Made by a program: the position numbers and the translations under genes. Below, piece by piece: positions 30,237-58,393 of a stretch of 60,531 nt of DNA; the first letter of the stretch is position 1; the number at the start of each line of letters is the position of its first letter. The DNA is from Verrucomicrobiota bacterium (GTDB lineage Bacteria; Verrucomicrobiota; Verrucomicrobiia; Methylacidiphilales; JBCCWR01), in contig JBCCWR010000003.1 in NCBI GenBank assembly GCA_039193385.1, positions 1-60,531 on the forward strand, read 5' to 3'. A model generated the notes under the pieces. The model did no database searches and had not been told where the DNA came from. It saw nothing but the letters and a program-made list of their open reading frames with translations.

Positions 30237-30310
<74 letters not shown>

Positions 30311-36665: not shown

Positions 36666-39476
36666 TTATGCGGCGAGTGCAGTCGTCAGTCTGAGAACCT
36701 CGTCGATCTCAGCCGGGCTAAAAACGCCACGAATTCCTTGAGGGTGAATAACGGTGAAAGGTGCGCGAATAAGGTCTTTCTTCTCAACCTTTTCACGTTC
36801 AATGATAAATCCCTTCAACAGATTGAGGAATTCCATCTGACGGCTACTTAGGTTTGTATGTTCGCGATAAAATTTTTCAAAAGCTTCGCTTACTGTTTCG
36901 GGAAAGCTTTTCAGGATTTCAATACCAAGAATATGTCGAATAAATTGGATGAACGTTGCTTTTCGATTCTGGTAAACCTGACGTAGCAGGTCTTCAGTAA
37001 TGTGCGGATGCTCCGAAAGTAGCAGGTCGGCTAGGGAGTTAGCTTCTTCAGAAGAGACTTCTTCACCGTTCTTGATTTTAAGTAAGACAGGATTCGCCTC
37101 CGTAAGTTCAGCGATGAGATTTTCAACCATTTCACGGTAACGGCTTATGCTGACAGCTTCATTTTCCGGGCCGAACTCAACCCGCTCTTTGTTATGCAAC
37201 ACATCGGTCAAATCGAGTTGAATGGGATCGGAACTCTTGTCGCCCTCACGGAATTTCATTAATGGCCCAAGCCTGCTATTCAACGCATCTAAAGAATCCT
37301 CCAGCTGAATGATGTTTTCACGTTTCCAGAAGGATTCTCTTTGGGCGTCTCTGATGAGATCAGCTTCAACTTTGACAAAACCAACGGAAAGTGGGAGTTC
37401 GCCAATCTGTTCGATGATGCCACTCCTAAGCGTTGCCGCCTTGTCGGATTCTTTAGAAAGAACAGAAAGCGAATATTCGATCAAATCGCGCTCAAAACGC
37501 ATGGCCTTGAAATCCACCTCTGAAATCGTTCGCATGAGAGGCTTAATTTCGGATCTAAGAAATTCAACTTTTTCATGTGTGAGTTTGATCCAATAGTTTT
37601 CATCTTCAACCTTCGTGAGCATTTCAGCAGCTTCAATCACAACAACTGAATTTTGAGGCAGGTCTTTGATTTGTGTTCTAAGCTTAGCGGCTTCTCTGGA
37701 GCAGATTAATTCTTCGTTTGTTTCAATCGCTTTCTCAGTTTTATCGAGGCGAAGACCAAATAACCTAACAGGTAAGGGAAGCTGTGGCTTCAATTCCTTT
37801 CCTTTGGGTTGCAGTTTAAAATACTCAAAGTTGTCCCAGCAATCGAGAATGAGAAAGACATCTTTTTCAGTACACCAGGGTTTCACTTTACCGGGATCTA
37901 ACAATCGCGTGCCGCGACCGATCATTTGCCAAAATTTAGTGTAAGAATAAACGGGTTTGGCAAAGACTAAATTGACGAGTTCTCGGACGTCGATTCCTGT
38001 ATCCAGCATATCCACACTGATAGCGATACGCGGCATGTCATTATGGATAAACTGATCCAGAAGCCCACTTTTTCCATAAACGCGTGGATCATCAGAAACA
38101 AGCACTTTGGCTAACTCACCTTTATATTGAGGATAGAGCTTATCAAAGATTTCTTCGATACGTCTTGCATGAGATTTCGATGAACAAAAGAAGATGGATT
38201 TACCAGGCAGCACCCCATTGGCATCCTTGATGGATTCCTCCATGAATTCACGGACGATGAGCGTATTAGTTCCCTGGTTTATGACTTTTTTCTCAAGCTG
38301 AGTGCCTTCGAAATTAATTTCTTCAACTTCCTTGCCTTCAAGCATCAGCTTCTTTTGGTCTTCAAGTGTAATGGTGCGCTTACTTATACCCTCCATCTGA
38401 AAGCGCGTCTGAATCTTCATAACCTGAAAATTGCACAGATAAGGAGGCATATTATTTACGGCTTCTTCAAATGTATAGGCGAAGGTCGGCAAACCATCTT
38501 CACAGTGAAAAAGTTGAAAAGTATTATGATCGATGATATCCGTTGGCGTTGCCGTTAAACCTACTGTTATGGTTTTAAAATAATCCAATACCTCACAATA
38601 AGTGTTGTAAATGGAGCGGTGACTCTCATCGACGACGATAAAGTCAAAAAAATGAGGTGAAAGGTGCTGAATATCATCGCGAATAATGTTCAGCATGGTG
38701 GGGTAGGTAGAAACGTAGATACGTCTATCTTGAGCTATCAACTTTTCCCCTACATTTGGCCACCGTGGTTCATTGGGAAGGTGCTCCTTGAAAGCTGAGA
38801 TTGCCTGCTCTCGAAGCGCTATTCGGTCGACCAAAAACAAAATACGCTCTGCATGTCCTGATCGCATGAGTGTATCAACCAATGAAATGCAGGTGCGTGT
38901 CTTTCCTGTTCCTGTGGCCATAACCAAGAGAAAGTCTCGCTTCTTATTTTCAATTCCCTCTAAAACCGCTCGAATGGCTCTGATCTGGTAATCACGTCCA
39001 GCGATATCCGTGTTGATCAATTCTTGAGTCAGTGGTTTGCGATTCCTACGAATATATTGAAACCGCTCCATATCGTCTCTAGTGGGGAATCCCACAACTT
39101 TGCGAGGAGGATAGTTTTCTAAATCCCAGAAAAAAGTATTCAGCCCATTGGTGTAAAAACAAAAGGGTAATTCTCCACCAAGTTGTTTCTGAATGTTATA
39201 ACAGTATTGCTTTGCTTGCTCGCGCCCTATCGCCGCATCTTTGCTTGATTTTTTGGCTTCAACCACCGCAAGCGGTTTACCGTCTTTTCCAAGTAGCACA
39301 TAGTCGCTAAATTGGTGGCCTGCATATGGGGCAGAAGCTTCCTTAAGGCTGTTTAAAGGTTCCGTGAGAATATCAAACTCCTCGATAACTTGAGTTGGAT
39401 CTGAAATATTCCAACCAGACTGGGCAAGCTGCTGATCAATCAATTGTGACCGAGTCTGTGCCTCCGTTTTGCTCAT
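36666..39476 (-). CDS. hsdR: Type I RM restriction subunit (EcoAI/EcoEI-like)
   Basis: SDYVL...VVEAKK nuclease, MATGTGKT, DESH, TATP, QMIGRGTR. Confidence 0.96.
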   Translation of the reverse strand: MSKTEAQTRSQLIDQQLAQSGWNISDPTQVIEEFDILTEPLNSLKEASAPYAGHQFSDYVLLGKDGKPLAVVEAKKSSKDAAIGREQAKQYCYNIQKQLGGELPFCFYTNGLNTFFWDLENYPPRKVVGFPTRDDMERFQYIRRNRKPLTQELINTDIAGRDYQIRAIRAVLEGIENKKRDFLLVMATGTGKTRTCISLVDTLMRSGHAERILFLVDRIALREQAISAFKEHLPNEPRWPNVGEKLIAQDRRIYVSTYPTMLNIIRDDIQHLSPHFFDFIVVDESHRSIYNTYCEVLDYFKTITVGLTATPTDIIDHNTFQLFHCEDGLPTFAYTFEEAVNNMPPYLCNFQVMKIQTRFQMEGISKRTITLEDQKKLMLEGKEVEEINFEGTQLEKKVINQGTNTLIVREFMEESIKDANGVLPGKSIFFCSSKSHARRIEEIFDKLYPQYKGELAKVLVSDDPRVYGKSGLLDQFIHNDMPRIAISVDMLDTGIDVRELVNLVFAKPVYSYTKFWQMIGRGTRLLDPGKVKPWCTEKDVFLILDCWDNFEYFKLQPKGKELKPQLPLPVRLFGLRLDKTEKAIETNEELICSREAAKLRTQIKDLPQNSVVVIEAAEMLTKVEDENYWIKLTHEKVEFLRSEIKPLMRTISEVDFKAMRFERDLIEYSLSVLSKESDKAATLRSGIIEQIGELPLSVGFVKVEADLIRDAQRESFWKRENIIQLEDSLDALNSRLGPLMKFREGDKSSDPIQLDLTDVLHNKERVEFGPENEAVSISRYREMVENLIAELTEANPVLLKIKNGEEVSSEEANSLADLLLSEHPHITEDLLRQVYQNRKATFIQFIRHILGIEILKSFPETVSEAFEKFYREHTNLSSRQMEFLNLLKGFIIEREKVEKKDLIRAPFTVIHPQGIRGVFSPAEIDEVLRLTTALAA

Positions 39477-40009: not shown

Positions 40010-41098
40010 TTAAGACCTAACCAGCACTGCCAGGCATTCTATGTGCGCGGTCCGAGGAAACATATCAACAGGTTGGAAGGCATCGGCTTTCCATTTTGGA
40101 CTCAAGCGTTTGAGGTCACGCGCCAGGGTGGACGGATTACAAGACAGGTAAATGATCTGCTCAAAGTCCAACGTAGAGATCTGATCCACAACATCTTTGC
40201 TCAAACCTTCACGAGGCGGGTCAATCAATAAACCCACCGGCTCTGCTTCGCACCATTCATAGGCACGCTTTAAGTGATCTGCAAAATCCCCCTCAATCAA
40301 ACGAGTGCGCGAGGATAAGCTTTTCTGTGCCTCATCCACAGCACGCTTATCGGACTCAATACTAATGATAAACTCCACCTCCTGCTCTATGACTTCAGAG
40401 AAAAAACCCACTCCGGCATAACCTTCTACAATGGAACGCAAGCGATGATCTACCGCTTCGCGCACCAGCTTTCTCAGAGGCTCAAGCAAAAAGCGATTTG
40501 CCTGAAAAAAAGCCGCATGAGGAATATCTGTAGCGCGTAGCGAATAATGCTCCCGCATAGAACCGCGTCGCTGACGCAGCTCGGTTAATTTTAAATTCAC
40601 CTCCTTTGAGGCGATGGCGCATTGATCAATATCAATAACATCACGTGAATCCTTACCATGATAGCCTATCTTTCCCCGCTGTGTATGAACACTGATGCGG
40701 TTGCGATAGCCATAGGCACTCTCACCACGTATGAAAGGTCGGATGCGAGGGTTTTCTATACCGCCAATTTTCTGCAACACATCACGCAGTTGCTTCTCCT
40801 TCACACGCAACTCTTCTGCATAACTCATATGCTGGTAATTACAGCCACCGCATACTCCGAAGTAAGCGCAATGTGGCTTTTCCCGCGCGCTGCTTGTTTC
40901 CAGCAATTCCAGGACAATGCCTCGGTAGAAATTCTTCCTATCCTGGGTTACTTGAACTAAAGCTCGTTCACCGACCAGAACATAAGGCACAAAAATAACT
41001 CTGCCTTTATGCCGGGCGACGCCTTCTCCACCGAAAGCAATATCCACAATCTCCACCTCCAGGACAGTGCCTACCTGAATACGCTTTTGTTCTCTCAC
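40010..41098 (-). CDS. TRAM-domain RNA m5U methyltransferase (RlmD/TrmA family)
   Basis: CAYFGVCGGC 4Fe-4S motif, FFQAN, DPPREG, YLSCNP, DMFPRTAHIE. Confidence 0.92.
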   Translation of the reverse strand: MREQKRIQVGTVLEVEIVDIAFGGEGVARHKGRVIFVPYVLVGERALVQVTQDRKNFYRGIVLELLETSSAREKPHCAYFGVCGGCNYQHMSYAEELRVKEKQLRDVLQKIGGIENPRIRPFIRGESAYGYRNRISVHTQRGKIGYHGKDSRDVIDIDQCAIASKEVNLKLTELRQRRGSMREHYSLRATDIPHAAFFQANRFLLEPLRKLVREAVDHRLRSIVEGYAGVGFFSEVIEQEVEFIISIESDKRAVDEAQKSLSSRTRLIEGDFADHLKRAYEWCEAEPVGLLIDPPREGLSKDVVDQISTLDFEQIIYLSCNPSTLARDLKRLSPKWKADAFQPVDMFPRTAHIECLAVLVRS

Positions 41099-41314
41099 TT
41101 TAACCGTTCTTATTGATTATCTCAGTTTATCACTAAAACACCCATCTTCTATCATACTATTACGTCCAGAATGATTTGAGGATTTTACTTCGCTGGATGT
41201 TCTCATCTATCATGCAATATGTCGTGGTTTTATTTAACCCGCATGGATGTAAAACACGTACATCCCTTTTCGCAAACAAAGTGATCAAGCTATGCTAGCC
41301 TAAACCAGCCCAAG

Positions 41315-43126
41315 CTAACTCAAACTAGCCATATAATGTCGCCAGCTGCCAAACTCCGTAATATCTTTGGCATCCACAATGGCATGACCTTCACAGATGA
41401 AACCGGAAACCCAGGTGCCATCGGCTAGTTCAAGCTTCCCTATTCCCAATGGTTGAGGGATGCCTGCAACAAAAGAACCAAAATACTCCAGAGGCATGTC
41501 CCAAACTTCCACTTCGATGCATGCTCCATGGGCCTCATCCCGGATAAGCCCCGGTCGATAGGGAGGACCGCCAGCCAGAGCATAAAAGCGGTAATTTTCT
41601 GAAGTCGTTGTTTTTAGCTTCAAGGAAGCTTCCCGCTCCGTAAGTTGAGCATTCAGAGGAAACCCTTCCAGATGCGCTCCACAAACTGCCACAGAAACTG
41701 TTTCCACAGAATCGTCTCTTTCAAGTTGTGGTGTATCCGTGATACATATTTTTGTTTTGCCAATATTAAGTTCTGTCTCTCTGTGATAAGCATCCGCAAC
41801 TCGCAAAAGAAACACATCATGATGAGCAGGTGCGATTAATGTTGCACCAAAAGGAAGCCCATTCTCATCGAAACCCACAGGTACGGCCACTGCACTCAAA
41901 TCGAGCAAGTTCATGAAGTTTGTATAGTAGCCCAGATTCGTATTGAGCTGAATAGGGTCGTTTGCGACTTCTGTCATCTTATAAATTTTTCCGACTGTGG
42001 GCGTGATGATGAGATCAAAGTTCTCCCATAGTTTTTCACTGGCACGTTTTAATTCCTTCAGACGATACATGGCCTTAAAGGTATCCGCGGCGGAGGGCTT
42101 TGCACCGCCCTCAATAATCTGTCGCGTTACGGGGAAAACCGCATCAGCGTGATCTTTGAGAAAGTCTCTGATAGCGACATACCGTTCTGCAACCCAGGGT
42201 CCTTGATAAAGCAGTGCGGCTGCATCAAGTAAGGGCGAAAAGTCTGCCTCGATCATGTGATGGCCTAAATTCTTAAAATGTGTCAGACCATTCTTAAACA
42301 ATGCTTCATTCTGAGTTTCACCCCAAAAATTCAATTGTGATTTTTGAGGAGTGGCGATGCGGAGCGAATCCAATGCACCCCATTTTTTAGATGCCGTCTG
42401 AATGGGTCTGGCATAAACATCATGCTCATCATATTGCGCCGCACACTGGAAAACTTGTTGAGCATCCTTTGCTGTTAAGGCAAAAATGGAGACACAGTCC
42501 AGGCTACGACATGCCGGAACAACACCGCTTGTGCTTAAAGCACCATGCGTCGGTTTCAATCCTATCAGATTATTGAATCCAGCCGGGACACGCCCGGAAC
42601 CTGCTGTATCCGTACCCAGAGAAAAACTAACCCATGCATGAGCCACAGCAACGGCAGAACCTGAACTGGAGCCACCCGAGATATATTCGACATCAAAGGC
42701 ATTGGGACATGCCCCATAAGGTGAACGTGTTCCTACCAACCCCGTAGCAAACTGATCCATGTTTGTTTTACCCAATGGAATGGCTCCGGCATCGGTGAGC
42801 TTTTGTACGACAAAGGCAGATTTCTCCGGAGTGTAGGCAAATTCAGGACAGGCGGCAGTGGTTGGAATGCCGGCCAAGTCAATATTATCTTTAATGGCAA
42901 AGGGCACCCCAAAGAGAGGTAGATCTTCTATAGTATGAGTTTCCAGACGCGATAAGTAGGACTCAAGATCGTCCATGTTGAATAGATGAATCCATACTCG
43001 CATCCAGTCATCCGTCTGGCGTATCTCAAGGAGAAGTTTTTCTATCAACATTCGCGGCGTCGTGCTGCCGGACTGATAAGCCTTGCGCAACGCATCAATG
43101 CCCATGTATTCAACAGAAGAATTCAT
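41315..43126 (-). CDS. atzF: Allophanate hydrolase
   Basis: KDNID, GGSSSGS, GTDTAGSGRVPA; C-terminal VAVCGAHL domain. Confidence 0.96.
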   Translation of the reverse strand: MNSSVEYMGIDALRKAYQSGSTTPRMLIEKLLLEIRQTDDWMRVWIHLFNMDDLESYLSRLETHTIEDLPLFGVPFAIKDNIDLAGIPTTAACPEFAYTPEKSAFVVQKLTDAGAIPLGKTNMDQFATGLVGTRSPYGACPNAFDVEYISGGSSSGSAVAVAHAWVSFSLGTDTAGSGRVPAGFNNLIGLKPTHGALSTSGVVPACRSLDCVSIFALTAKDAQQVFQCAAQYDEHDVYARPIQTASKKWGALDSLRIATPQKSQLNFWGETQNEALFKNGLTHFKNLGHHMIEADFSPLLDAAALLYQGPWVAERYVAIRDFLKDHADAVFPVTRQIIEGGAKPSAADTFKAMYRLKELKRASEKLWENFDLIITPTVGKIYKMTEVANDPIQLNTNLGYYTNFMNLLDLSAVAVPVGFDENGLPFGATLIAPAHHDVFLLRVADAYHRETELNIGKTKICITDTPQLERDDSVETVSVAVCGAHLEGFPLNAQLTEREASLKLKTTTSENYRFYALAGGPPYRPGLIRDEAHGACIEVEVWDMPLEYFGSFVAGIPQPLGIGKLELADGTWVSGFICEGHAIVDAKDITEFGSWRHYMASLS

Positions 43127-46100
43127 GCCTTTGTTTCCTTATGCTTAACTTTACCTTTATCTTTATCTTTAATCAAAACCGTAACTGTTTGACCTGCCTG
43201 AATGGGTTTACCTTCTTCACAATGCACACTATGAATGGTGCCATCAAAGGGCGCTAGAATGCGTGTTTCCATTTTCATCGCCTCCACTATGATGATGGTA
43301 TCTCCTTCATCAACGACCTGACCTTCTTCAACTTCGATTTTCCAGACATTGCCCGTAATCACTGAGGGAATCTCTTCACCATTCTCTGGCACATCGATAG
43401 TGCAATCATTGTCATGGTCTCGAGTGAGTGATGGATCAACTGAAGTAAAAATGTTCTGACCTGCCGCCACCCATCGTTCACGTTCTTCTATAAAGGCTTT
43501 CTGCTGGGTTGTTTTAAATTCACTAATCGATTGGGCATTGTCTTTCAGGAAAGCATTGTAGTCTTTCAGGCTGAAGGTTTTCTCCTCTACCTTTAATTTA
43601 AACTGACCTTGTGGAAAGTCAGACCGTATCTGCATAAGTTCATCGTGACTCACGGGGTAGAAACGGAGTTGATCAAAAAACCGTAGCAACCAGGGCTTGC
43701 CCTCTTTAAAATCTGCAGTCTGTTTGTACGTATTCCAGACTTGGATTGTTCTGCCGCATAACTGATAGCCACCCGGACCTTCCATACCATAAATACAAAG
43801 ATAAGCTCCACCTATACCGACAGCATTCTCCGGCGTCCAGGTCCTGGCCGGGTTATACTTGGTCGTCACCAAACGGTGGCGTGGGTCAATGGGAGTAGCC
43901 ACAGGAGCACCCAGGTACACATCCCCCAAACCAAGAACCATATAACTGGCATCAAAGAAAATACGATAAACATCATCTATGGAATTAAGTCCATTGATAC
44001 GACGAATAAATTCAATATTGCTGGGACACCACGGGGCGTTCTGACGGACACTTTGAGAATAATGATCAATGGCTTTTTGAATAGAGTCGTCATTCCATGC
44101 CAGTGGAAGGTGCACAAGGCGTGAACTCACTTCCATATCTTCGACAGAAGGGAGATTGTGCTCCGCTTCTACAAGAAGATCCATGAGATCTTTTAAGGGA
44201 AGAGTGCCATTATCAAAGTGAATCTGTAACGAACGAATACCGGGCGTGAGATCAATGATGCCTGGTAACACCAGTTTTTGCAGATACTCCATCAAGGCAT
44301 GAACCCGAAAACGTATGTTCATATCCAAGGCCATAGGACCATACTCTACGAGGACATACTTATCACCTGCTCCACGATATACGACACTGAGATTAAGGTC
44401 TTTTTCGGGTAATTGATGAATAACCGCTTCATCTAATCTATGTTCCTTTTGTTCTGAAGAGGAGCGTTCAACCGTGACCATGGACAAGGCTTGAATCGTT
44501 TTGTTTTGTGCCTCTTCCCGCGCACAGGCCTCATCATAACTCCAACGGATAAAACGCACGGCATCTCCCGCTTTGAGCTGACCCAGCTTCCATAGCTCTG
44601 CCTGGACCACTACAGCAGGACAGACAAATCCACCCAGACTAGGACCATCCTGCCCGAGGATGATGGGCATATCTCCGGTAAAATCTATGGTTCCTACAGC
44701 ATAGGCATTATCATGAATATTTGACGGATGGAGACCTGCTTCCCCCCCATCTTTTCTAGCCCATGTCGGCTTGGGACCTATCAGACGAATGCCTGTACGA
44801 TCTGAGTTATAATGAATTTCCCAATCCGTGGAGAAAAACATTTCAATGTCTTCATCAGTGAAAAAATCTGGCGCACCGTGAGGACCATATAAGACGCCGA
44901 TTTCCCATGAATTGCTGTATGAGGGAATAAGTGAACTATCGATAGTTTGAAAAGAATTTTCTAAAACCCCTACTTGTGCTTGTTCTTTTTCCTTTTCTTT
45001 TTGCAGATGCAGGACATCCGTAGCTTGCAAAGGACGTCCCCCATGACCTCCAAATTGACCAAGACTGAATGTAGTGCAACTCCCCATAAACTCAGGCACA
45101 TCCCATCCATTTTTAATAGTTAAATACGCGCGTGCGCCTGCACCTTTAAGTTTTCCTATCTTTAAAATCTGACCTGGTTTGATAGAAACAACTTTCCAGT
45201 ATTCGATCGCTTCATCATCCAACTTTGCCTCCATAAAGGCACCGGTTAGAACAATATGGGTAGCCGTATTAAATTTTAAACTGCAGCCCGTGATCGTCAT
45301 CTCCAGTCCGGGAGCGCTTTCTTCATTACCCAGCATACGATTACCTAAACGAAGCGCATAATGGTCCATAGGTCCGGAAGGCGGAACACCGACAGCCCAG
45401 TAACCCAAACGACCGGGATAATCGACCACCAACGTCATGGTGCCGGCTTGCAATACTTCTACCGTATGGGGATGATGGATAAAATCCTTAAGAAATGTTG
45501 TGGTCATCTTACCGTCGACAAAGGTTGCATCCTGTAAAATATCGATCAGGTATTCTTTATTGGTTTCGATACCATGCAGCTTTGTCTTCTGCAGCCCATC
45601 CTTAAGGTGTTGGATAGATTGTTCACGGGTCCCGCTGTAAGAAATGATCTTGGCGATCATCGGATCATAAAATGCCGTTATGTCCGAACCCGACTCCACC
45701 CATGTTTCACAACGCAGTGACTCAGGAAAATGAGTCAAGGTCAGTTTGCCTGCGCTGGGGCGAAAATCAGCAGAGGGGTTTTCTGCATAAATACGAACTT
45801 CGATGGCTGAGCCCTCGGGTTTGAAGCCAAAATGATCTAAAGGCTCAAGCTCTCCCGCAGCCTGCTTAACCATGAATTCGACGAGATCCACTTTATAAAC
45901 TTCTTCCGTCACCCCATGCTCAACCTGAAGACGTGCATTAACCTCCAGGAAATAAAATGCTTCCGTATCATCATCATAAATAAATTCAACCGTTCCGGCA
46001 TTGCGGTAAGAAACGGTCTGGCCCAGCTTCACGGCGGCATCACACATAGCCGCTCTGATGTTATCGCTCAGTCGAGGTGCTGGGCATTCTTCAATAACTT

Positions 46101-46809
46101 TCTGGTTTCTTCTCTGCGTGGAGCAGTCACGCTCACCCAGTGCTATGACAGACCCTTTTCCATCGCCAAAGATTTGCACTTCAATGTGGCGGGCACGTTC
46201 AATGTATTTTTCGATGAATAACCCGCTATCGCCAAAGTTATTCTTGCCCAGCATCTTGACAGATGAGATGGCTTCGATGAGTTCCTCTTTTTTTCTTACC
46301 AGCCGGATTCCGATACCACCGCCGCCCGCTGTGCTTTTAACCATCAATGGATAACCTATCTCTTCCGCTGCATGAATCGCTTCGTCTTCCGCTTGAATCA
46401 ATCCAGTTCCAGGACACAGCGGCACTTGAACACTCTGGGCCAATTCACGAGCAGCGTGCTTCAGTCCAAACGCACGCATTTGTTCAGCAGTGGGACCAAT
46501 GAAAGTAAGCCCTGCCTCATCACAGGCTTCAACAAATGCAGGATTTTCACTTAAAAAGCCATAGCCGGGATGAATCGCTTGTGCCCCTGTTGCTTGGGCC
46601 GCTTTTATAACTTGATCCGCATTAAGATAACTCGCTTGAACCGGAGCCGGGCCAAGGCAAAAAGCTTCATCTGCATCAAGCACATGTTTTGCATAACGAT
46701 CCGCCTCCGAGTAAACAGCAACGGACTTGATATCCATCCGCTTCAGAGTTCGCATCACTCTACAGGCAATGGCGCCACGGTTAGCGATAAGAACCTTATC
46801 AAACATCAT
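43123..46809 (-). CDS. uca: Urea/guanidine carboxylase (Asp-type, guanidine-preferring)
   Basis: Biotin carboxylase ([13 protein letters not shown]), CT domain [25 protein letters not shown] biotin site. Confidence 0.96.
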
Positions 46810-47447
46810 TCATTCCAAATAAGCACTTGGGCTGGGGTCGGATTGTATGCGTTACATGGATTATTCAGTTGGGGACAGTTTGATATAAGACAAACAGTAT
46901 CCATCTCAGCTTTTAGCTCGACATAACGACCTGGAGCAGAGATTCCATCTGCAAAGGTAAGTCCTCCCTCGGGGGTCACCGGCACGTTCATGAAGAAGTT
47001 AATATTGTTCGTTATATCACGTTTGGAAACAGGTTGAGGCCATAAAGAAGCAAACTTAGTAAAAGTATCTCTACAAGCATGCATACCATGTTTGTTCAGG
47101 GAATAGCGAACGGTATTGCTCTCTGTGGAACAAGCACCACCCAGCGTGTCGTGTCTCCCACAGGTGTCTGCCGTGATCGTCATCAAGACATTCCCCCGGG
47201 TGGTTATTAACTGCGCACCTGCAGTCAGGTAGATATTCCCCTGCTCTCGCATTGTGTCCACTGCACTGTAGCGGTCTGCAAAATCATGAGCATTGTAAAA
47301 AAGAGTATCAACGGCCTGATTCCCTTCCAGGTCAACAATACGCAATGTTTGTCCACTACTAATTTCATGCATCCAACCATCTCCCGCATCAATGACTTTG
47401 TCATAAGCGGCCTCTTCTGTCTTTAATGTGCTTTCTACGGTCTTCAT
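46806..47447 (-). CDS. cgdB: Carboxyguanidine deiminase subunit B (UAAP2, DUF1989)
   Basis: [34 protein letters not shown]. Confidence 0.92.
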
Positions 47448-47488
47448 CTTTTTTAACTAATGGGGTTACTCATCTCGGAGCTATTGAA

Positions 47489-48211
47489 CTATAGGAAATA
47501 TCTTTCTGTATTAATAAAACCACGTTGATTCTCAGGACATGATGTTCGACACAGGTCATCATCGGCTACTTCGGCTACCTCCCAGATAATGGCTTTAACC
47601 CGTTTTGCAGTATAGGTCTCCGATGTATCGAGCGGATGAGGGCATGTGTTTAAAATAACCAGCGTGTTCATCTCAGAACGAAGATCCACAAAATCCCCGG
47701 CTTGTGAATTACCAGCTTGATATGAGAGCTGGCCCTCAGAGTCCGTAACGACCTTGCTAAAAAAATTCACACAGGGAATGATATCGCGTAGCCCCATATT
47801 ATATTTAGCAAGCTCTTGAAGAAACCCGTCTCGCGCGTTGCGGTAGTATTTATTACGAAGTTTCTGGAAAGATCCCTCACCATACTTTTCATGAATGATT
47901 TTTGGTGTTGAATGTCCTGCTACGGTGTCATGCCAGCCTACTGTATCCTTGATAATGGAAACAAGAATACGCCCCATATCAGAATAGAGACAATGGCCTT
48001 GTGTGAGTAAGAAGGTATGTTGGGCCTTTAATGTATCTGGCATATTATAACGTTCCGTCAGACATACTGAATTGTAAAGCATGGTGGAAATATTGGCTCC
48101 TCCTTCCAAGTCAATAAGACGCAGAGCTGTGCCACGTTTGAGAATATGGGACCAGTTTTCTCCGGGAGCCAGGTTGACTTCAAAACGAATTTTTTCTTCA
48201 GGTATATCCAT
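47489..48211 (-). CDS. cgdA: Carboxyguanidine deiminase subunit A (UAAP1, DUF1989)
   Basis: ERYNMPDTLKAQ, SDMGR, WHD, VNFFSKV, CPHPLD. Confidence 0.92.
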   Translation of the reverse strand: MDIPEEKIRFEVNLAPGENWSHILKRGTALRLIDLEGGANISTMLYNSVCLTERYNMPDTLKAQHTFLLTQGHCLYSDMGRILVSIIKDTVGWHDTVAGHSTPKIIHEKYGEGSFQKLRNKYYRNARDGFLQELAKYNMGLRDIIPCVNFFSKVVTDSEGQLSYQAGNSQAGDFVDLRSEMNTLVILNTCPHPLDTSETYTAKRVKAIIWEVAEVADDDLCRTSCPENQRGFINTERYFL

Positions 48212-48220
48212 AAATGATAC

Positions 48221-48673
48221 TCAATAAATTTGTGGCAAGATAGTTGAACTGAGTTCCAGCTTGCCCTGGGTAACTCCCTTACATGTTATAAGTTCATCAG
48301 AAATCTTCTTGAGGCGTTTGGCCGGCCCCTGCATGAGAAGAACCTGTAAAGAATGCCCCCGTTCGAGATGCACAACCTGAACGGTAATAATCTCTTTAAG
48401 ATACTTATGCTGTAAATCTGTAAGTTTATTCTGCACATCACGCTTGCGGTGCTCATAAACCAGGGTCAGCACGCCCGTCATCACCGCATTACTATGCTTC
48501 ACACGATGTTCGCCAACAGCCCGACTGACTAACTCCGCAATGGCTTGTGAGCGACTGGCAAACCCGCGTTGCTCACTGATGCGTTCAAAGTCATGAAAGA
48601 GTGCGCTGGGCAGGCATACCGTAAAACGCTCCACACCATCATTCGATTCCATTCGCTTTTTACTTACACTCAT
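48221..48673 (-). CDS. NikR-like ribbon-helix-helix regulator with degenerate Ni site
   Basis: RFTVCL beta strand, SRSQAI, LVYEH..RD, QH...VH ACT-like domain. Confidence 0.88.
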   Translation of the reverse strand: MSVSKKRMESNDGVERFTVCLPSALFHDFERISEQRGFASRSQAIAELVSRAVGEHRVKHSNAVMTGVLTLVYEHRKRDVQNKLTDLQHKYLKEIITVQVVHLERGHSLQVLLMQGPAKRLKKISDELITCKGVTQGKLELSSTILPQIY

Positions 48674-48741
48674 AATATGAATATTTTATTAAATAGTATG
48701 AATAGAGGATCAATACTTTTATTCATTCTGGTTTATTTTAC

Positions 48742-49656
48742 TTACTCTACCTCATCCCCAACGCGGGTCATTTTGACGATGGGCAACCCATTCTCACCCT
48801 CCGGCTTTTCCGGATGAATGAGATGTTCCAGGCGCTTTTTGATCGATAAAAATAGTGGACTTAAAAACTGATCAGGATTTCGAGGACGAGGCACGCCCAC
48901 TTCAATAATTTCTCTAACTCTACCAGGGTGGCTGTCCAGTATGGTAATACGATCTCCCAAATAAGTCGCCTCATCCAGGTCATGCGTAATAAATAAAATG
49001 GTCACATCCACCTCCCGCCATATCTGCAAAAGATGAGACTGCATTTGCGCACGCGTCTGCGCATCGAGCGCGGCAAAGGGTTCATCCATGATGAGGATAC
49101 GTGGCTGGTTGGCCAGTGCTCTGGCAATAGCAACGCGCTGTTTCATGCCGCCAGAAAGTTGACAGGGATAGTGGTTGGCAAATTTTGCCAAGCCGACCAG
49201 ATCAATCCATTCCATGGCTTCAGACTCAACGCTGGTGGAACGTCCTTGTTTGATTTCCAAGCCAAACATGACGTTTTTCTTCACCGTTAACCAGGGAAAG
49301 AGCGTATAACCCTGAAAAACCATGCCGCGATCCGATCCAGGACCCAACACAGGGTTACCATCCAGCAAAGCCTCACCTGAGGTTGGATAATCCAGGCCTG
49401 CAATAATGCGTATCAAAGTGGATTTGCCACATCCCGAAGGGCCGACAATCATATGAAATTCCCGTCGATACAACTGCAGGTTCACATCCTGCAGAGCGAC
49501 TGTCGTTTTGTCACCCGCACAAAATTCACGCCCCAGCGATTGAATATCCAGTATCACGGGACGTTGCTTCAACTCCTCAAAACGTTGCTTCATCTCAGGA
49601 GTCTTATCCTTATAATCAGGCAACTCTAAGGCTTTAACTTCCTCGTTTAGATTCAT
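48742..49656 (-). CDS. ABC transporter ATP-binding protein (TauB/SsuB-like)
   Basis: [21 protein letters not shown]. Confidence 0.95.
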
Positions 49657-51002
49657 GCCGCTGACTCCGTCTGCTTCTTTTTAAAGAGCGTGCTTAAGAA
49701 AGTTTTTTGTTTCTTCTTGTAATGCCAGGGGAAAAGATACACGCGCAGCCAGGATAAAAACTGATCTGTAAAAAACCCTAAGAGGCCGATCGAAATGATA
49801 ACCGGAAAGACTCGCTCAAAGTTTCTCCAACGTCCCTGGGTTTCAATAAATTCCGTTAGACCTGTTTTAACCCCAACTAATTCAGCAATAACCAGCCAGG
49901 TCCATGACCAACCCAGAAGAATACGTAAGTCATTATATAAATTGGGAAGAATACCAGGAACAATGACTTTACCTAACACATGCCTGTCTTTAGCGCCTAG
50001 AGTTTGAGCCGCCTCAATCAATGAACAATCCAACTGTCTGGTTGTTTTGGAGATAACTAGAACCATTTGAAAAAAGGTTCCTATAAAAACGAGAGCTATT
50101 TTGGGTGCATCATACGCCATGAAGATAGCAACTAGCAATGTGCTGAAAGCCGGGGCAGGCATATAACGAAAGAAATCAATAAACGGTTCAAACAATCTGG
50201 AAAAAAAATCATACGTTCCACAAAGAACACCCAGCGGAACACCAATCAGACAGGACAAGAGAAACCCTCCAAAGACTATCTTCAGAGAATGAAGAAACCG
50301 CTCATACATCCATGGTTTGTCGCCCGTCGGTTCTCGAAAAAAATCTATAATACCTGCCTTAACAATCTCATGGGGTGCTGGAAGATACACCGGATTGGAA
50401 GCCTTCCCTTGCGGAATAAGTTTAAGCAGCTGCTCTTCCGGCAAAGATTTGTAATCATATTCTTCGGCAAGGGATGATAAATATGTCCAGTTTTTCTGAA
50501 TAATTTCCAGATTTTCCGAACTAAGAGCAGGTCTGGTTGCTTTGATAGAACCAACAGCTATCTGCTGCCAAAGGGCATAAATGGCTTTATCATCTTCTTT
50601 TTGCGTATCTGACAAAAAGCCATTTTCAATACCGAGTGATGCAAGTTGACGCAGGATTCTCTGGTTAACCCGTTTGGTTGTTTGAATGGGAGAGGCCTTT
50701 GCTTTAGCCTGGAGGACATCTTGATTCTCCGCTCGTATAGCCTCCTGAAAGGAAGGCATAAATTCTTTATCAATTCGGTCTCCTGCCGTGTAGACCGTCT
50801 TAACATCTTTCTGCTCCGCGGAAATTTCTAATTTAACATCGGGATGCCAGGCAAACGGCGGCACATAACTCAACAAGCACCAGAAGAGAATAGGAATCAA
50901 GAAAGAGCATATCGTAAGAATGACCTGCCTTTTTCGAGATAAGTCGTGCCTGATAACAAACCACCCGAACTGAGGCCTTGCTTTCGATTGTTGCTCCGTC
51001 AT
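49653..51002 (-). CDS. ABC transporter permease with large N-terminal loop insertion
   Basis: [27 protein letters not shown]; probable ATG 51002. Confidence 0.92.
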
Positions 51003-51013
51003 GGATCTTGCTG

Positions 51014-51050
51014 AAAAACCAGCCTGCGGTCTCAAATAACCACAGACTGG
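51014..51050 (-). terminator. Intra-operon terminator-like hairpin after the SBP gene
   Basis: Minus strand CCAGTCTGTGGT-TATTTGAG-ACCGCAGGCTGG-TTTTT. Confidence 0.65.
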
Positions 51051-51067
51051 CACCGTTTTATTTTATC

Positions 51068-52126
51068 TTAATCTACCATCACTTCTGTCAGAGCAGGCTC
51101 AAGGTATTTTTCAATTTCCAGAGGAGCTTCATAAACCCCATACTTTACATTGAATTCATCCACTATTTTGGAGGAGCCGTACACAGAACCCAGCCCTTCA
51201 GCTGATTTCCATTTTTCTAGAGCTTCTTCTAGGCTCAAAATATAAGTTCCCTTGAAGAAAGGTTCATATTCTTCAGGAGAAATATTTACCCGCGCAGAAA
51301 GAATCTTCAGTGCCTCATCAATGTTGGCTTCATCTTTCAAGAAATCAACGATCCTGTACCAGACCTTAACCACTTTGGCCCAATCCTCAGTATGAGCGGC
51401 CAGACTTTCAGGCGATACATAAAGAAGGTCATAGATGATTCCCGGAGCATCCGCGGAGGTGAAAACAGGTGTAGAGCCCGCAACTGTTTTCAAAGCCTGC
51501 CCGGAGTTTGGCTGCCATGCGCCGATCGCATCCACATCACCCGAAGCAAGCACCTGGGGCGTTTCATTGGTAGGTGTATTAACAATGGTTACGTCCGTGT
51601 CAGAAAGTCCGGCACTTTCCAGGCCTTTCAGTAAAAGCAGATGACAGACAAACCCTTCTTCCACACCAATCTTCTTCCCTTTAAGATCAGCCACCGTTTT
51701 AATACCGGGTTGTGCCACGATCATGTCATTCCCATTAGAAAAGTCATTGATAATAATGCCTACAGAAGGTTTACCGGTAGCACCTGTAACCAAGGCATCA
51801 CCATTTGTCATACATACCGCATCTACATTACCCGCGACATAGGCATCCATAGAGGCCACATAGTCATACCACTCAAACTTGACGTTGACGCCTTCTTCAG
51901 CAAACCATTTCTTGGCTATACCGATTTCCCATGCCACCCAACCAGGCCAGTCGCTGTAGGCGATTTTTAAGGGTGTTTCTGCTGCTGTTTCTACAGGAAC
52001 TTCTGCAGGTTTGGATTCCTCTGTAGTGGTTACAGGCGCTTCACTTGCCGGTTCACTACAGCCGATGATTATTAATGTGGATAGTGCGATTGCTGGCACC
52101 ATACCTAACCATTTCATTTTTATCAT
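51068..52126 (-). CDS. ABC substrate-binding lipoprotein (urea carboxylase-region type)
   Basis: Lipobox IIGC, SDWPGW, MTNGDAL, SNGND, WQP. Confidence 0.9.
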
Positions 52127-52230
52127 TATTTACCTCTCTTTTATTTTTATTTTTACTGAATAAATTCAGTAAATATCAGAATAAATTTTATTTCAAACCA
52201 GGTTGTATTTCTTTTAGATCTAACCCTTTA

Positions 52231-52258
52231 GTATGAATTTTTAAAGAATTATTCATAC
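52231..52258. promoter_or_regulatory. NikR-type operator GTATGA-N16-TCATAC
   Basis: GTATGA 52231-52236, 16-bp spacer, TCATAC 52253-52258; the arms extend to AGTATGAAT/ATTCATACT; 105 bp upstream of the operon start. Confidence 0.85.
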
Positions 52259-52573
52259 TTAACCTCAAAAATTAAAGCATCCTGAGACACTTTTTTCTTC
52301 AATTTCAGATCTAAAACCACCAAGGCCCCACGAAGCAAATACCATACCAGCCAAATGAAGCCTGCTGTGGTGGAATTTTAGCTTATTTTTAAACAGCGGC
52401 TGTTCACATTTAGCCATCTTGTAGGATGTTTTTAAACTAAGTGCTCTTTCAAAAAGCCCCTCACACCAAAGGCTCGAGCTTCCAAGATCTAACACAGATG
52501 GTCATGTCGCTATTGCATCATACAGGTTTAATGATCTTGTCATGAGCTTATTTTTATGACAGAGGTAAAGTGA

Positions 52574-53563
52574 ATGGCAGATAAGAAGTACGATATTATT
52601 GGTATTGGATCACCCATTGTTGATTCACTGGCTCATGTCGATGAAGCATTTATCGAGAACATCAAGGGCTCTAAAGGCGGCATGGAGCTCGTCACCAGCG
52701 AGGAGATGTCTGAGCTGATAAGTAAAGTTTCAGGACAAGTCCGCGAAGCTGCAGGAGGTTCCTCAGGAAATACCATCTTTGCTATGCAAAGGTTAGGACT
52801 CTCAACCGCTTTTCTGGGAAAACTTGGCAACGGAGCAGATGGCCGCTTCTACAGCAGAAGCTATCAGTTTCTCGGAGGCAGCACGGACTATTTTAAAACG
52901 GGAGATATTGCTAATGCACGCTGCCTGTCCCTCATTACGCCGGACTCTGAACGCACCATGCGTACAGATCTGGGAGCTGCCGCCACCCTTTCGATCGATG
53001 AAATTTCTTCGAGCGATTTTTCACTATCCCGCCACGCCCATATAGAAGGCTATATGTTGTTCAACAGAGACCTCATGATGCATGTTCTTAAATGTATTCA
53101 AGCCGCTGATTGCTCCATAAGTCTTGACCTGGCTTCATTTGAAGTCGTCGGAGCCGCTCGTGATATTCTTGCTGATATTCTACGTGACTATGTGGATGTG
53201 GTTTTCGCCAATGAAGAAGAAGCAGCTGCCTTTTGCGGAGGTGGGGATGATTATGAAGCCATGGCCCAACAACTGGGCGAATTATGCCGCATAGCCGTAG
53301 TAAAACTAGGTAAGAAAGGTTCCTTAATTTATCATGAAGGTGACCTGGTACGTGTGCCGGCTGTCAAAGTTAAAAATGCCATTGATACCACAGCGGCAGG
53401 CGACCTTTGGGCTGCCGGGTTTCTCTATGGTTGGATCACCGGCCAACCCATGGCGGAATGCGGGCGTTATGGGTCCATTACCTCCGCCGAAGTTGTGCAG
53501 GTGATCGGGTCTGAAATTTCCGATGAAACCTGGCAGGGAAGAATTTTACCTGCTCTTACATAA
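52574..53563 (+). CDS. PfkB-family adenosine kinase-like sugar kinase
   Basis: GSPIVD, GGSSGNT, ERTMRT, ANEEEA, DTTAAGD. Confidence 0.88.
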   Translation: MADKKYDIIGIGSPIVDSLAHVDEAFIENIKGSKGGMELVTSEEMSELISKVSGQVREAAGGSSGNTIFAMQRLGLSTAFLGKLGNGADGRFYSRSYQFLGGSTDYFKTGDIANARCLSLITPDSERTMRTDLGAAATLSIDEISSSDFSLSRHAHIEGYMLFNRDLMMHVLKCIQAADCSISLDLASFEVVGAARDILADILRDYVDVVFANEEEAAAFCGGGDDYEAMAQQLGELCRIAVVKLGKKGSLIYHEGDLVRVPAVKVKNAIDTTAAGDLWAAGFLYGWITGQPMAECGRYGSITSAEVVQVIGSEISDETWQGRILPALT

Positions 53564-57059: not shown

Positions 57060-57250
57060 CACTGGTCGTTGGTTGATGTTCATAGCCTTTGTCTGACTTA
57101 ATGGTCTCAAATCAAAAGTTGCTATAGCCTAGGAAAGGCCACTCATTACTTGAAATAAACCGATCTTCGGTTGATATATTCTAATGAAAACACCTTAATG
57201 CACTATTAAGCACCTTGATTTATTGGTGCAATATATTGTATATTGGTGCT

Positions 57251-58393
57251 ATGAGCCTTGCAGAGGAAATGAAACTATCCTTTCAACCAAGCATGAAGCT
57301 GGAAAAAGCCCTTAAGGCAATGCAATCGCATATCGAGCACCTGGCCCTTGAACTTCCAGATCAACAAGAGCAGGCATGGCTACATAGATGGGCTTTAATT
57401 AGCACCGTTGGAGCTTCCACCCGTATTGAAAATGCTGTTTTAACCGATGCGGAAATCGAATGGGTCGATACCACACTTTCTGAAAGTAATGGACAGACTG
57501 CCTTTGAAGAAAACAAACAGCATATCATCGATAAACTCTCTAAAGACCATGAGCGTAGTATAGAGGAAGTCGTAGGATGCAGAGAGGTCTTATCTCTTGT
57601 CTATCTACAGGCAGATCAGCTATTCCCCTTAACAGAAACTGCTATTCGCGGCCTTCATCATAAATTGCTCAATTTTTATCCAGAAGCTAAACGATATGCG
57701 GGACGCTATAAAGAAACCACTAATCAGGTTGTTTCGATCAATCATGATACCGGGCAAAAGCGTATTGTCCTTGATCCCACACCTCCAGGCCCTCAGACCG
57801 AAGCCGCCATGCAAGAGCTTGTGAACTGGTATAACCAGATTTTACCTGTTCACCCCTGGCCACTCCTGGTTGCCACAGAATTTGTTTTCCGTTTTCTGGC
57901 TATCCATCCATTTCAAGACGGTAATGGCCGCTTGGGTAGAGCTCTTTTCTTGATGAGCCTCCTACATGCAGAGGATCAAGCACTTAATAATATTGTAAGA
58001 TTAATATCCATTGACCGGCAAATAGAACGCCACCGCCCCCTTTACTATTCCGTGCTTCAGCAAACATCCAACGGTCGCTTCCGAAATAATGCTAAAGACT
58101 ATGATCTTGAACCATTAGCATGGTTTTTTCTGAAAATGTTTGATCATGCATGCAAAGATATTGCAGTTTTAAGAAATAAGTATGCGGCTCTACAAAGACT
58201 TTCTGAAAGTGCGACTAGGGTATTAGCATGTTTTCGTATGGCTCCTGAACGACGTATGAAACTTGCCGACTTGATAGCTGAAACTGGACTGGTGCGAAGA
58301 ACAGTTCAAAATGCACTTCAACCTCTTCTAGCTGCTGGCTTTATTCAGCGCAAGGGAACAGGGCCGGCAACGCGTTATCAGCTTATCTTTTAA
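57251..58393 (+). CDS. Class II Fic protein with C-terminal HTH
   Basis: HPFQDGNGRLGR Fic motif, STRIEN inhibitory motif, C-terminal wHTH. Confidence 0.93.
   Translation: MSLAEEMKLSFQPSMKLEKALKAMQSHIEHLALELPDQQEQAWLHRWALISTVGASTRIENAVLTDAEIEWVDTTLSESNGQTAFEENKQHIIDKLSKDHERSIEEVVGCREVLSLVYLQADQLFPLTETAIRGLHHKLLNFYPEAKRYAGRYKETTNQVVSINHDTGQKRIVLDPTPPGPQTEAAMQELVNWYNQILPVHPWPLLVATEFVFRFLAIHPFQDGNGRLGRALFLMSLLHAEDQALNNIVRLISIDRQIERHRPLYYSVLQQTSNGRFRNNAKDYDLEPLAWFFLKMFDHACKDIAVLRNKYAALQRLSESATRVLACFRMAPERRMKLADLIAETGLVRRTVQNALQPLLAAGFIQRKGTGPATRYQLIF

Follow-up and report, generated by a model that had tools for sequence, protein, structure and literature searches.

A NikR-fold regulator clade without an intact nickel site and its predicted operator at guanidine carboxylase operons

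We analyzed a 60,531-nucleotide stretch of a Verrucomicrobiota genome (contig JBCCWR010000003.1 of assembly GCA_039193385.1; hereafter, the window), in which a gene resembling the nickel-responsive repressor NikR lies within an operon for guanidine use. Read along the minus strand, from 52126 to 41315, this operon encodes an NMT1/SsuA-like ABC substrate-binding protein (SBP, 51068-52126), an ABC permease (49653-51053) and an ABC ATPase (48742-49656), all three recognized by profile matches, followed by the NikR-like gene (48221-48673). Next come two DUF1989 subunits of carboxyguanidine deiminase, UAAP1 (TIGR03425, 47489-48211; 330 bits, cut-off 206) and UAAP2 (TIGR03424, 46806-47447; 327 bits, cut-off 285), known as cgdA and cgdB, and then a urea/guanidine carboxylase (TIGR02712, 43123-46809) and an allophanate hydrolase (TIGR02713, 41315-43126), both above their family cut-offs. 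With all four enzyme genes over cut-off, this is an operon of the guanidine carboxylase pathway, and the gene order and family matches confirm an earlier note, made from the sequence alone, that placed a NikR-fold gene inside it.

The regulator is a protein of 150 amino acids with a ribbon-helix-helix (RHH) and an ACT-like domain, as indicated by profile matches, predicted fold and alignment. Its reading frame is intact. It matches Pfam NikR_C (E 7e-24) and NCBIfam PRK04460 (121 bits, cut-off 105), passing two NCBIfam NikR cut-offs in all. The predicted structure (pLDDT 91.8) has NikR as its best structural matches in Foldseek and VIA, with ACT domains as the closest non-NikR folds; identity to the Pyrococcus horikoshii NikR is 39% (VIA Z 14.7). 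A phmmer alignment to Escherichia coli NikR (1q5v) bore out each residue that the earlier note had assigned by hand: R3 and T5 of the DNA-recognition strand are kept as R16 and T18, and H76 and H89 as H89 and H102, but H87 is replaced by V100, C95 by S108 and E97 by Q110. PMC7055735 gives H76', H87, H89 and C95 as the nickel ligands of NikR, and with V100 and S108 the window protein lacks a complete square-planar site. The low-affinity K+/Ni site (E30, D34) is altered as well; Q43 stands at the E30 position, as Q does in 29 of 33 members from the same phylum, and the D34 position is variable.

These changes could be viewed either as decay of one copy or as traits of a family. At least 607 matches to the regulator's clade were found in GTDB genomes, and the counts out of 80 loci given below refer to the best 80 of these, many of them on short contigs. 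Cultured carriers include Pelagicoccus (L067), Haloferula (L071) and Mangrovitalea (L030). The search pattern fixed the C95 position, so the C95 count in these loci was discarded, the set was not used for ligand counts, and unbiased sets were used instead. Two further samples were picked on cgdA alone. The first covered 400 genomes of the window's phylum (Verrucomicrobiota, as the close homologues are labelled), with cgdA in 41, of which 35 had a NikR_C gene; 40 loci were compared (G486 was left out), 33 with a clade gene, one at a contig edge and six without a clade gene. The second covered 400 genomes of Gammaproteobacteria (the class of G085), with cgdA in 30 besides G085. A FastTree phylogeny was built from 186 proteins, namely 18 locus proteins and 168 proteins from two homologue searches, after removal of four near-copies and one short row. 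In this tree, 91 of the 96 proteins without C95 clustered together, 89 of them on one branch with support 88. Upon re-alignment, all four nickel ligands were retained in none of 74 clade proteins and none of 33 phylum members, versus 87 of 95 non-clade proteins.

C95 is the constant loss of the clade, absent in all 33 phylum members, whereas H76, H87 and H89 vary freely, E30 is mostly Q, and 20 of the 33 retain just zero or one of the four ligands. H87 is retained in 25 of 33 phylum members and in 68 of the 80 loci; of the two losses, H87 and C95, that the earlier note suggested comparing across homologues, only that of C95 holds throughout the clade. Since the clade alignment shows C95 always and H87 seldom lost, we regard the C95 change as general and the H87 change as local to the window's sub-branch, which carries the extra losses H87->V and E97->Q. 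The clade also has conserved residues of its own (M65, E94, Q115-G-P117, L121 and P147-P148), and the window protein shows E94, Q115-G-P117 and a C-terminal ILPQIY tail. The note had allowed that homologues might mostly keep H87 and C95, making this copy simply decayed; C95, however, is lost clade-wide, though H87 is mostly kept. Judged from these alignments, the window regulator is a member of a widespread, conserved clade without a complete nickel site and not a decayed copy. Clade proteins carry nickel-responsive labels at their database sources and pass two NCBIfam cut-offs; we nevertheless keep them apart from NikR proper because they fail the test of the nickel site.

Upstream of the operon, 104 bp before the SBP start codon, lies a predicted operator (hereafter, the box). 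The sequence GTATGAATTTTTAAAGAATTATTCATAC at 52231-52258 is the sole exact GTATGA-N16-TCATAC match within the window, in agreement with the earlier note, and this is the E. coli NikR operator as printed in PMC7055735. The 2.5-Mb genome (G000, 89% complete) holds two exact matches where 0.19 are expected, and all spacers from 10 to 21 other than 16 gave one match in total. By matrix score, the window's box is the top site in the genome at 25.4 bits, followed by the other perfect box at 24.9 and the next site at 17.1. That second box lies on contig C202 (L001, G000:C202, 1-2607), downstream of a creatininase-family gene and next to glnT, the gene for a type III glutamine synthetase, whose start it immediately precedes. 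It adjoins pfkB and bPH_4 genes that are 78% and 66% identical to the window's own, and C202 probably represents the window's locus as found in a co-binned relative, or else an old duplication. Perfect boxes also head operons in G001, a genome of the same genus, and in G003.

The box recurs with the regulator, as the earlier note expected. GTAT-N20-ATAC came out on top in an unguided dyad search (29 of 79 loci), and with at most one mismatch 64 sites were found in 60 of 80 loci, versus one to five sites for each of the other spacers from 12 to 20. All 64 lie outside mapped genes and no more than 450 bp upstream of an operon gene. In 14 of 20 held-out loci, the best-scoring site of a matrix derived from them lay shortly before an operon gene, and overall a box was found in 74 of 80 loci, the other six lacking the operon's 5' end. 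The clade's operator is GTA[TA][TG]AC-N14-GT[AC][AT]TAC; the E. coli-perfect form, while exact in the window, is a minority. Among the phylum loci, a box (matrix score of at least 8) accompanied the regulator in 31 of 33 and was seen in none of the six without it (Fisher p 9e-6, overstated, as are all our co-occurrence p values, since kin are not independent).

Boxes precede the genes for the SBP, the regulator itself, cgdA, creatininase, glnT or the carboxylase, and not nickel targets. In 11 of 33 phylum loci a box stands directly before cgdA, and the regulator gene often has its own box upstream. The regulator appears local in scope, because G003 and G076 hold a single pattern match each genome-wide. 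A wider regulon in G001 was considered and rejected: the extra pattern matches numbered seven versus eight in the control and fell mostly inside open reading frames (ORFs), one of them near urease. Loss of the box in genomes with a canonical NikR was likewise rejected, given variant boxes of 18-29 bits in L056, L060 and L065. Two loci (L070, L256) have a second, partial SBP-like gene with its own boxes, divergently oriented and inserted between cgdB and the carboxylase gene.

The gene content of the related loci is consistent with guanidine use: cgdA lies within 10 kb in 76 of 80, the carboxylase gene is present in 69 and the SBP gene in 59, while glnT is found in 41 and a creatininase-family gene in 35. 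Minimal regulons of the regulator, cgdAB and the carboxylase only occur in nine loci (L026, L028, L031, L039, L068, L079, L194, L201 and L210). A further module, recurring in L002, L007, L011, L048, L052, L076 and L173, comprises a creatininase-family hydrolase, type III glutamine synthetase (TIGR03105), a Rieske oxygenase, a PuuE-like deacetylase and an AP_endonuc_2 TIM barrel; it may represent an undescribed pathway by which a cyclic or substituted guanidine would enter the carboxylase route.

The boxes are frequently accompanied by sigma-54-type (-24/-12) promoter motifs. Such a motif was found upstream of 79 of 91 SBP genes, whereas shuffled sequences gave 1.8. For 58 of 132 boxes a motif begins 15-36 nt ahead, versus zero to two in three control windows. 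The commonest offset is 22-23 nt (about 22 nt in L022 and L030), and therefore the box would cover the predicted transcription start. In six loci (L026, L028, L031, L039, L041 and L043) the motif overlaps the box's left half-site (TGGTATTACTT.TGCT). An NtrC-type dyad lies upstream in 16 loci, with its rank in the unguided dyad search as the only control. The window's genome has rpoN; its NtrC-like genes do not reach the family cut-off. The window's own motif, TGGTATGGTATTTGCT (52334-52349, minus strand), is ambiguous, because the same bases form the end of a creatininase-family gene remnant (52334-52432, minus strand), which is 51% identical over 33 amino acids to the intact gene of C202 (tblastn E 1e-6). 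The 16-mer persists in C202 and G001, and a motif of this kind occurs in only three of the 52 creatininase genes; both facts suggest that a promoter may have been retained. A search of 52100-52600 yielded no sigma-70 promoter. The gene order in G001 is box-glnT-SBP. Given this order and the remnant in the window, the window's lineage seems to have lost creatininase and glnT yet kept the box.

Operons of this pathway usually have a guanidine riboswitch at their head, and we compared the distribution of box and RNA. No Rfam riboswitch was found in the window at gathering score, nor in 41000-52700 at E<=5, so that no guanidine riboswitch heads the window's carboxylase operon; guanidine-I (RF00442) and guanidine-II (RF01068) had no match in the genome at its 89% completeness, with guanidine-III and -IV scanned in the window only. 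Neither guanidine-I nor -II was detected in any of the 40 phylum loci by profile and pattern, nor by Rfam in the ten scanned. Among the 30 gammaproteobacterial cgdA loci, 22 had guanidine-I without a box ahead of any operon gene, six had a box without guanidine-I, two (one truncated) had neither and none had both (Fisher p 5e-5, again overstated by kinship). An Rfam rescan of 12 of these loci agreed on the guanidine-I calls, and a clade gene is present in five of the six box loci and at the end of the next contig in the sixth. In 13 of these 22 guanidine-I loci, a sigma-54 motif lies ahead of the riboswitch.

The two devices occupy the same positions. In L251, L263 and L267, guanidine-I heads an SBP-permease-ATPase-creatininase-glnT module and a second copy precedes cgdA; in L254 and L256, these two places, ahead of the SBP gene and ahead of cgdA, are taken by boxes. 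A tree of 86 cgdA rows shows 13 switches of the box/riboswitch label, at least five of them forced by strong branches (three 'box' rows, L069, L073 and L186, are labelled by gene, with no box visible). Across 50 genomes chosen for the regulator, with 61 candidates per genome scored, guanidine-I was found in seven of the eight in which cgdA is detached from the regulator and in none of the other 42. The predicted regulator thus likely takes the role that guanidine-I has in sister operons. The earlier note's suggestion that riboswitches are absent where the box is present stands for guanidine-I at the operon head and fails for guanidine-II, whose pattern precedes the carboxylase in 19 of 80 loci. 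Six loci with three DUF1989 genes (L198, L200, L204, L206, L207 and L211) form a separate lineage with neither box nor Rfam riboswitch and with a sigma-54 motif in five; they suggest a third control type, or nitrogen control only.

The clade can be set against three known systems. With NikR (P. horikoshii 2bj1/2bj3, E. coli 1q5v/2hza, Helicobacter pylori 2ca9/6mrj) it shares the RHH and ACT-like fold, the R-x-S/T recognition strand and the 6-16-6 operator geometry. It differs in that C95 is never kept, H76, H87 and H89 are variable and E30 is mostly Q, in the newly conserved M65, E94, Q115-G-P117 and a C-terminal PP[LI]H-type tail, in an operator that heads guanidine import and carboxylase genes at sigma-54-type promoters and not nickel uptake genes, and in predicted induction instead of co-repression. 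With guanidine-I (ykkC, RF00442) it shares the cgdAB-carboxylase and SBP-permease-ATPase-creatininase-glnT operons and the same two positions, often behind a sigma-54 motif. Guanidine-I, however, is an RNA switch in the leader, whereas the clade pairs a protein with a predicted DNA operator, and across the 30 gammaproteobacterial loci the two were never found at one operon head.

The third system is the cyanobacterial gdmH/gimABC, controlled by NtcA and guanidine-I (PMC12704784). The likeness lies in a two-input logic of nitrogen starvation and substrate and in a GimA-like binding protein; the cyanobacterial enzyme, however, is a nickel-dependent hydrolase, whereas the window's operon uses the carboxylase route and its substrate input is predicted to be a protein repressor. 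For GimA, the same paper gives a docked guanidinium site of W59, W62, D135, F205 and D233 and guanidine binding at ~97 nM. W60, W63, D134, W204 and D233 of the window's SBP have the same spacing, as placed from these published residue numbers and with no alignment, and four of the five are kept in 56-57 of 57 locus proteins. No solved guanidine-binding SBP structure matched the window's SBP.

Taken together, we consider it fairly probable that the window's NikR-fold regulator, its nickel site incomplete, acts through the palindrome at 52231-52258 to repress the operon for guanidine import and carboxylation until guanidine, or a close pathway compound, releases it. The parts of this model differ in strength: that the regulator binds DNA and represses is very probable, its release by guanidine or a near compound of the pathway is less so, and for guanidinium itself as the releasing ligand the chances are about even. 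As a tetramer of the NikR type, the regulator would bind the box so as to span its 16-bp spacer, cover the transcription start of a nitrogen-starvation (sigma-54) promoter and also block its own gene. Imported guanidine, or a close pathway compound, would then release it, in reverse of the co-repression by NikR. Two inputs, nitrogen starvation and guanidine, would be required together, as with NtcA and the riboswitch in cyanobacteria. More speculatively, the clade-conserved E94, E/Q110 and Q115 might line a pocket that replaces the nickel site; from the topology of NikR, E94 could face the neighboring subunit's old nickel site.

Several observations weigh against this model. Induction by a ligand requires reversed allostery, since the ligand of NikR promotes DNA binding, and all three histidines are kept in nine of 33 phylum members. 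The window's own sigma-54 motif lies 75 bp from the box and within the gene remnant. A guanidine-II pattern, with Rfam matches also found, precedes the carboxylase in 17 regulator-led operons among the 19 loci noted above, and RNA sensing of guanidine therefore coexists with the regulator. Two genomes (G769, G889) carry the clade gene elsewhere plus guanidine-I before cgdA, and within the SBP subfamily found in regulator operons, a guanidine-I head is confined to L263 and L267, which count as a single event on the SBP tree. The six phylum loci with neither box nor riboswitch mean that riboswitch absence does not require the regulator. Finally, in seven loci (L030, L033, L036, L046, L051, L053 and L074) cgdAB-carboxylase has split off and the regulator remains with the SBP-creatininase-glnT module, which would fit an upstream substrate as effector.

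This last point leads to the alternative that survives best, though we still hold it unlikely: the same repressor and operator, with an upstream substituted guanidine or cyclic amidine, or downstream allophanate or urea, as the inducer. Besides the regulator's persistence with the creatininase-glnT module, it draws on the frequency of creatininase-family and glnT genes (35 and 41 of 80 loci), on the frequent presence of Rieske oxygenase and deacetylase genes in the operon and on the creatininase remnant kept in the window. It would also be in keeping with guanidine-II already reading guanidine before the carboxylase in 19 loci; yet guanidine-I and -II co-occur in single operons (e.g., L261, L262, L270 and L277), and redundancy is hence normal. 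Moreover, guanidine-I stands at the head of the creatininase-glnT module in L250, L251, L263 and L267, and the nine minimal regulons contain the regulator with cgdAB and the carboxylase alone.

A second alternative, which we regard as quite improbable, keeps the logic of NikR, in which the ligand promotes binding, and takes nitrogen sufficiency as the signal, conveyed by glutamine, ammonium or a partner such as type III glutamine synthetase. No reversal of allostery would be needed, glnT is often directly upstream, and amino acids are common ligands of ACT domains, the nearest folds outside NikR. Nitrogen control, however, probably already comes from the sigma-54 promoters, the box keeps to the guanidine locus and is not found at global nitrogen genes, and glnT is missing from the window and unseen in 39 of 80 loci, some of them truncated.

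It is more doubtful still that the regulator remains a metal sensor, binding nickel or another divalent ion through its remaining histidine and glutamate residues and turning on a nickel-free carboxylase route, a backup role that the earlier note had offered as its alternative. The two NCBIfam cut-offs are passed, and many members from Gammaproteobacteria and Chthoniobacter retain the full set of H76, H87, H89 and E97, but no ligand position is conserved across the clade, 20 of 33 phylum members keep at most one ligand, and the low-affinity site has changed too, from E30 to Q. A urease match was found in 36 of 54 genomes (one weak), and in some Chthoniobacteraceae loci the transporter genes are followed by hupE/ureJ and urease; of the 80 loci, only 9-11 have these genes further downstream. 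Searches of G000, G003 and G051 (86-95% complete) turned up neither urease nor NiFe hydrogenase nor HypA, a canonical full-site NikR coexists with the clade gene in G097, G100, G106 and G606, and a metal sensor would not be expected to interchange with a guanidine riboswitch. In L005, L009, L010 and L013, the SBP-permease-ATPase genes are followed in the same orientation by hupE/ureJ (checked in L009) and urease, with urtB-type urea ABC genes beyond the carboxylase; this neighborhood may reflect descent of the clade from a nickel/urease regulator. That the window merely holds a decayed NikR beside a chance palindrome, as its sub-branch with H87->V and E97->Q might hint, has a negligible probability in view of the intact frame, the pLDDT of 91.8, the conserved clade residues, the box kept in G001 and G003 and the co-occurrence of box and regulator across loci.

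Around the operon, a Type I restriction R-subunit-like ORF (36666-39476) and a Fic-like ORF (57215-58393), both judged from their translations only, flank the region, and tRNA genes lie at 30237 and 54529; the surroundings of the operon may be an island.

Returning to the repressor released by guanidine, a 2025 review names riboswitches as the only known guanidine receptors. No description of a NikR-like clade at guanidine operons was found in full-text literature searches, with supplements and subscription CgdAB papers outside their scope. The regulator would likely be the first known protein switch responding to guanidine. In the broader form of this proposal, for which we see the case as evenly balanced, the clade would be the first protein receptor for guanidine, with the nickel site rebuilt for guanidinium and the allostery reversed, repeatedly swapped with guanidine-I, and guanidine use in the window's phylum would be chiefly under its control. 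Nickel regulons inferred from clade genes are probably wrong, because these genes pass the NCBIfam NikR cut-offs and are labelled nickel-responsive. The analysis supplies a concrete candidate protein, operator and promoter for guanidine control. If the proposal is true, a guanidine-inducible repressor would be a usable genetic switch, a metal sensor would have been converted into a sensor of an organic cation, and protein and RNA would have replaced each other several times at one regulatory position.

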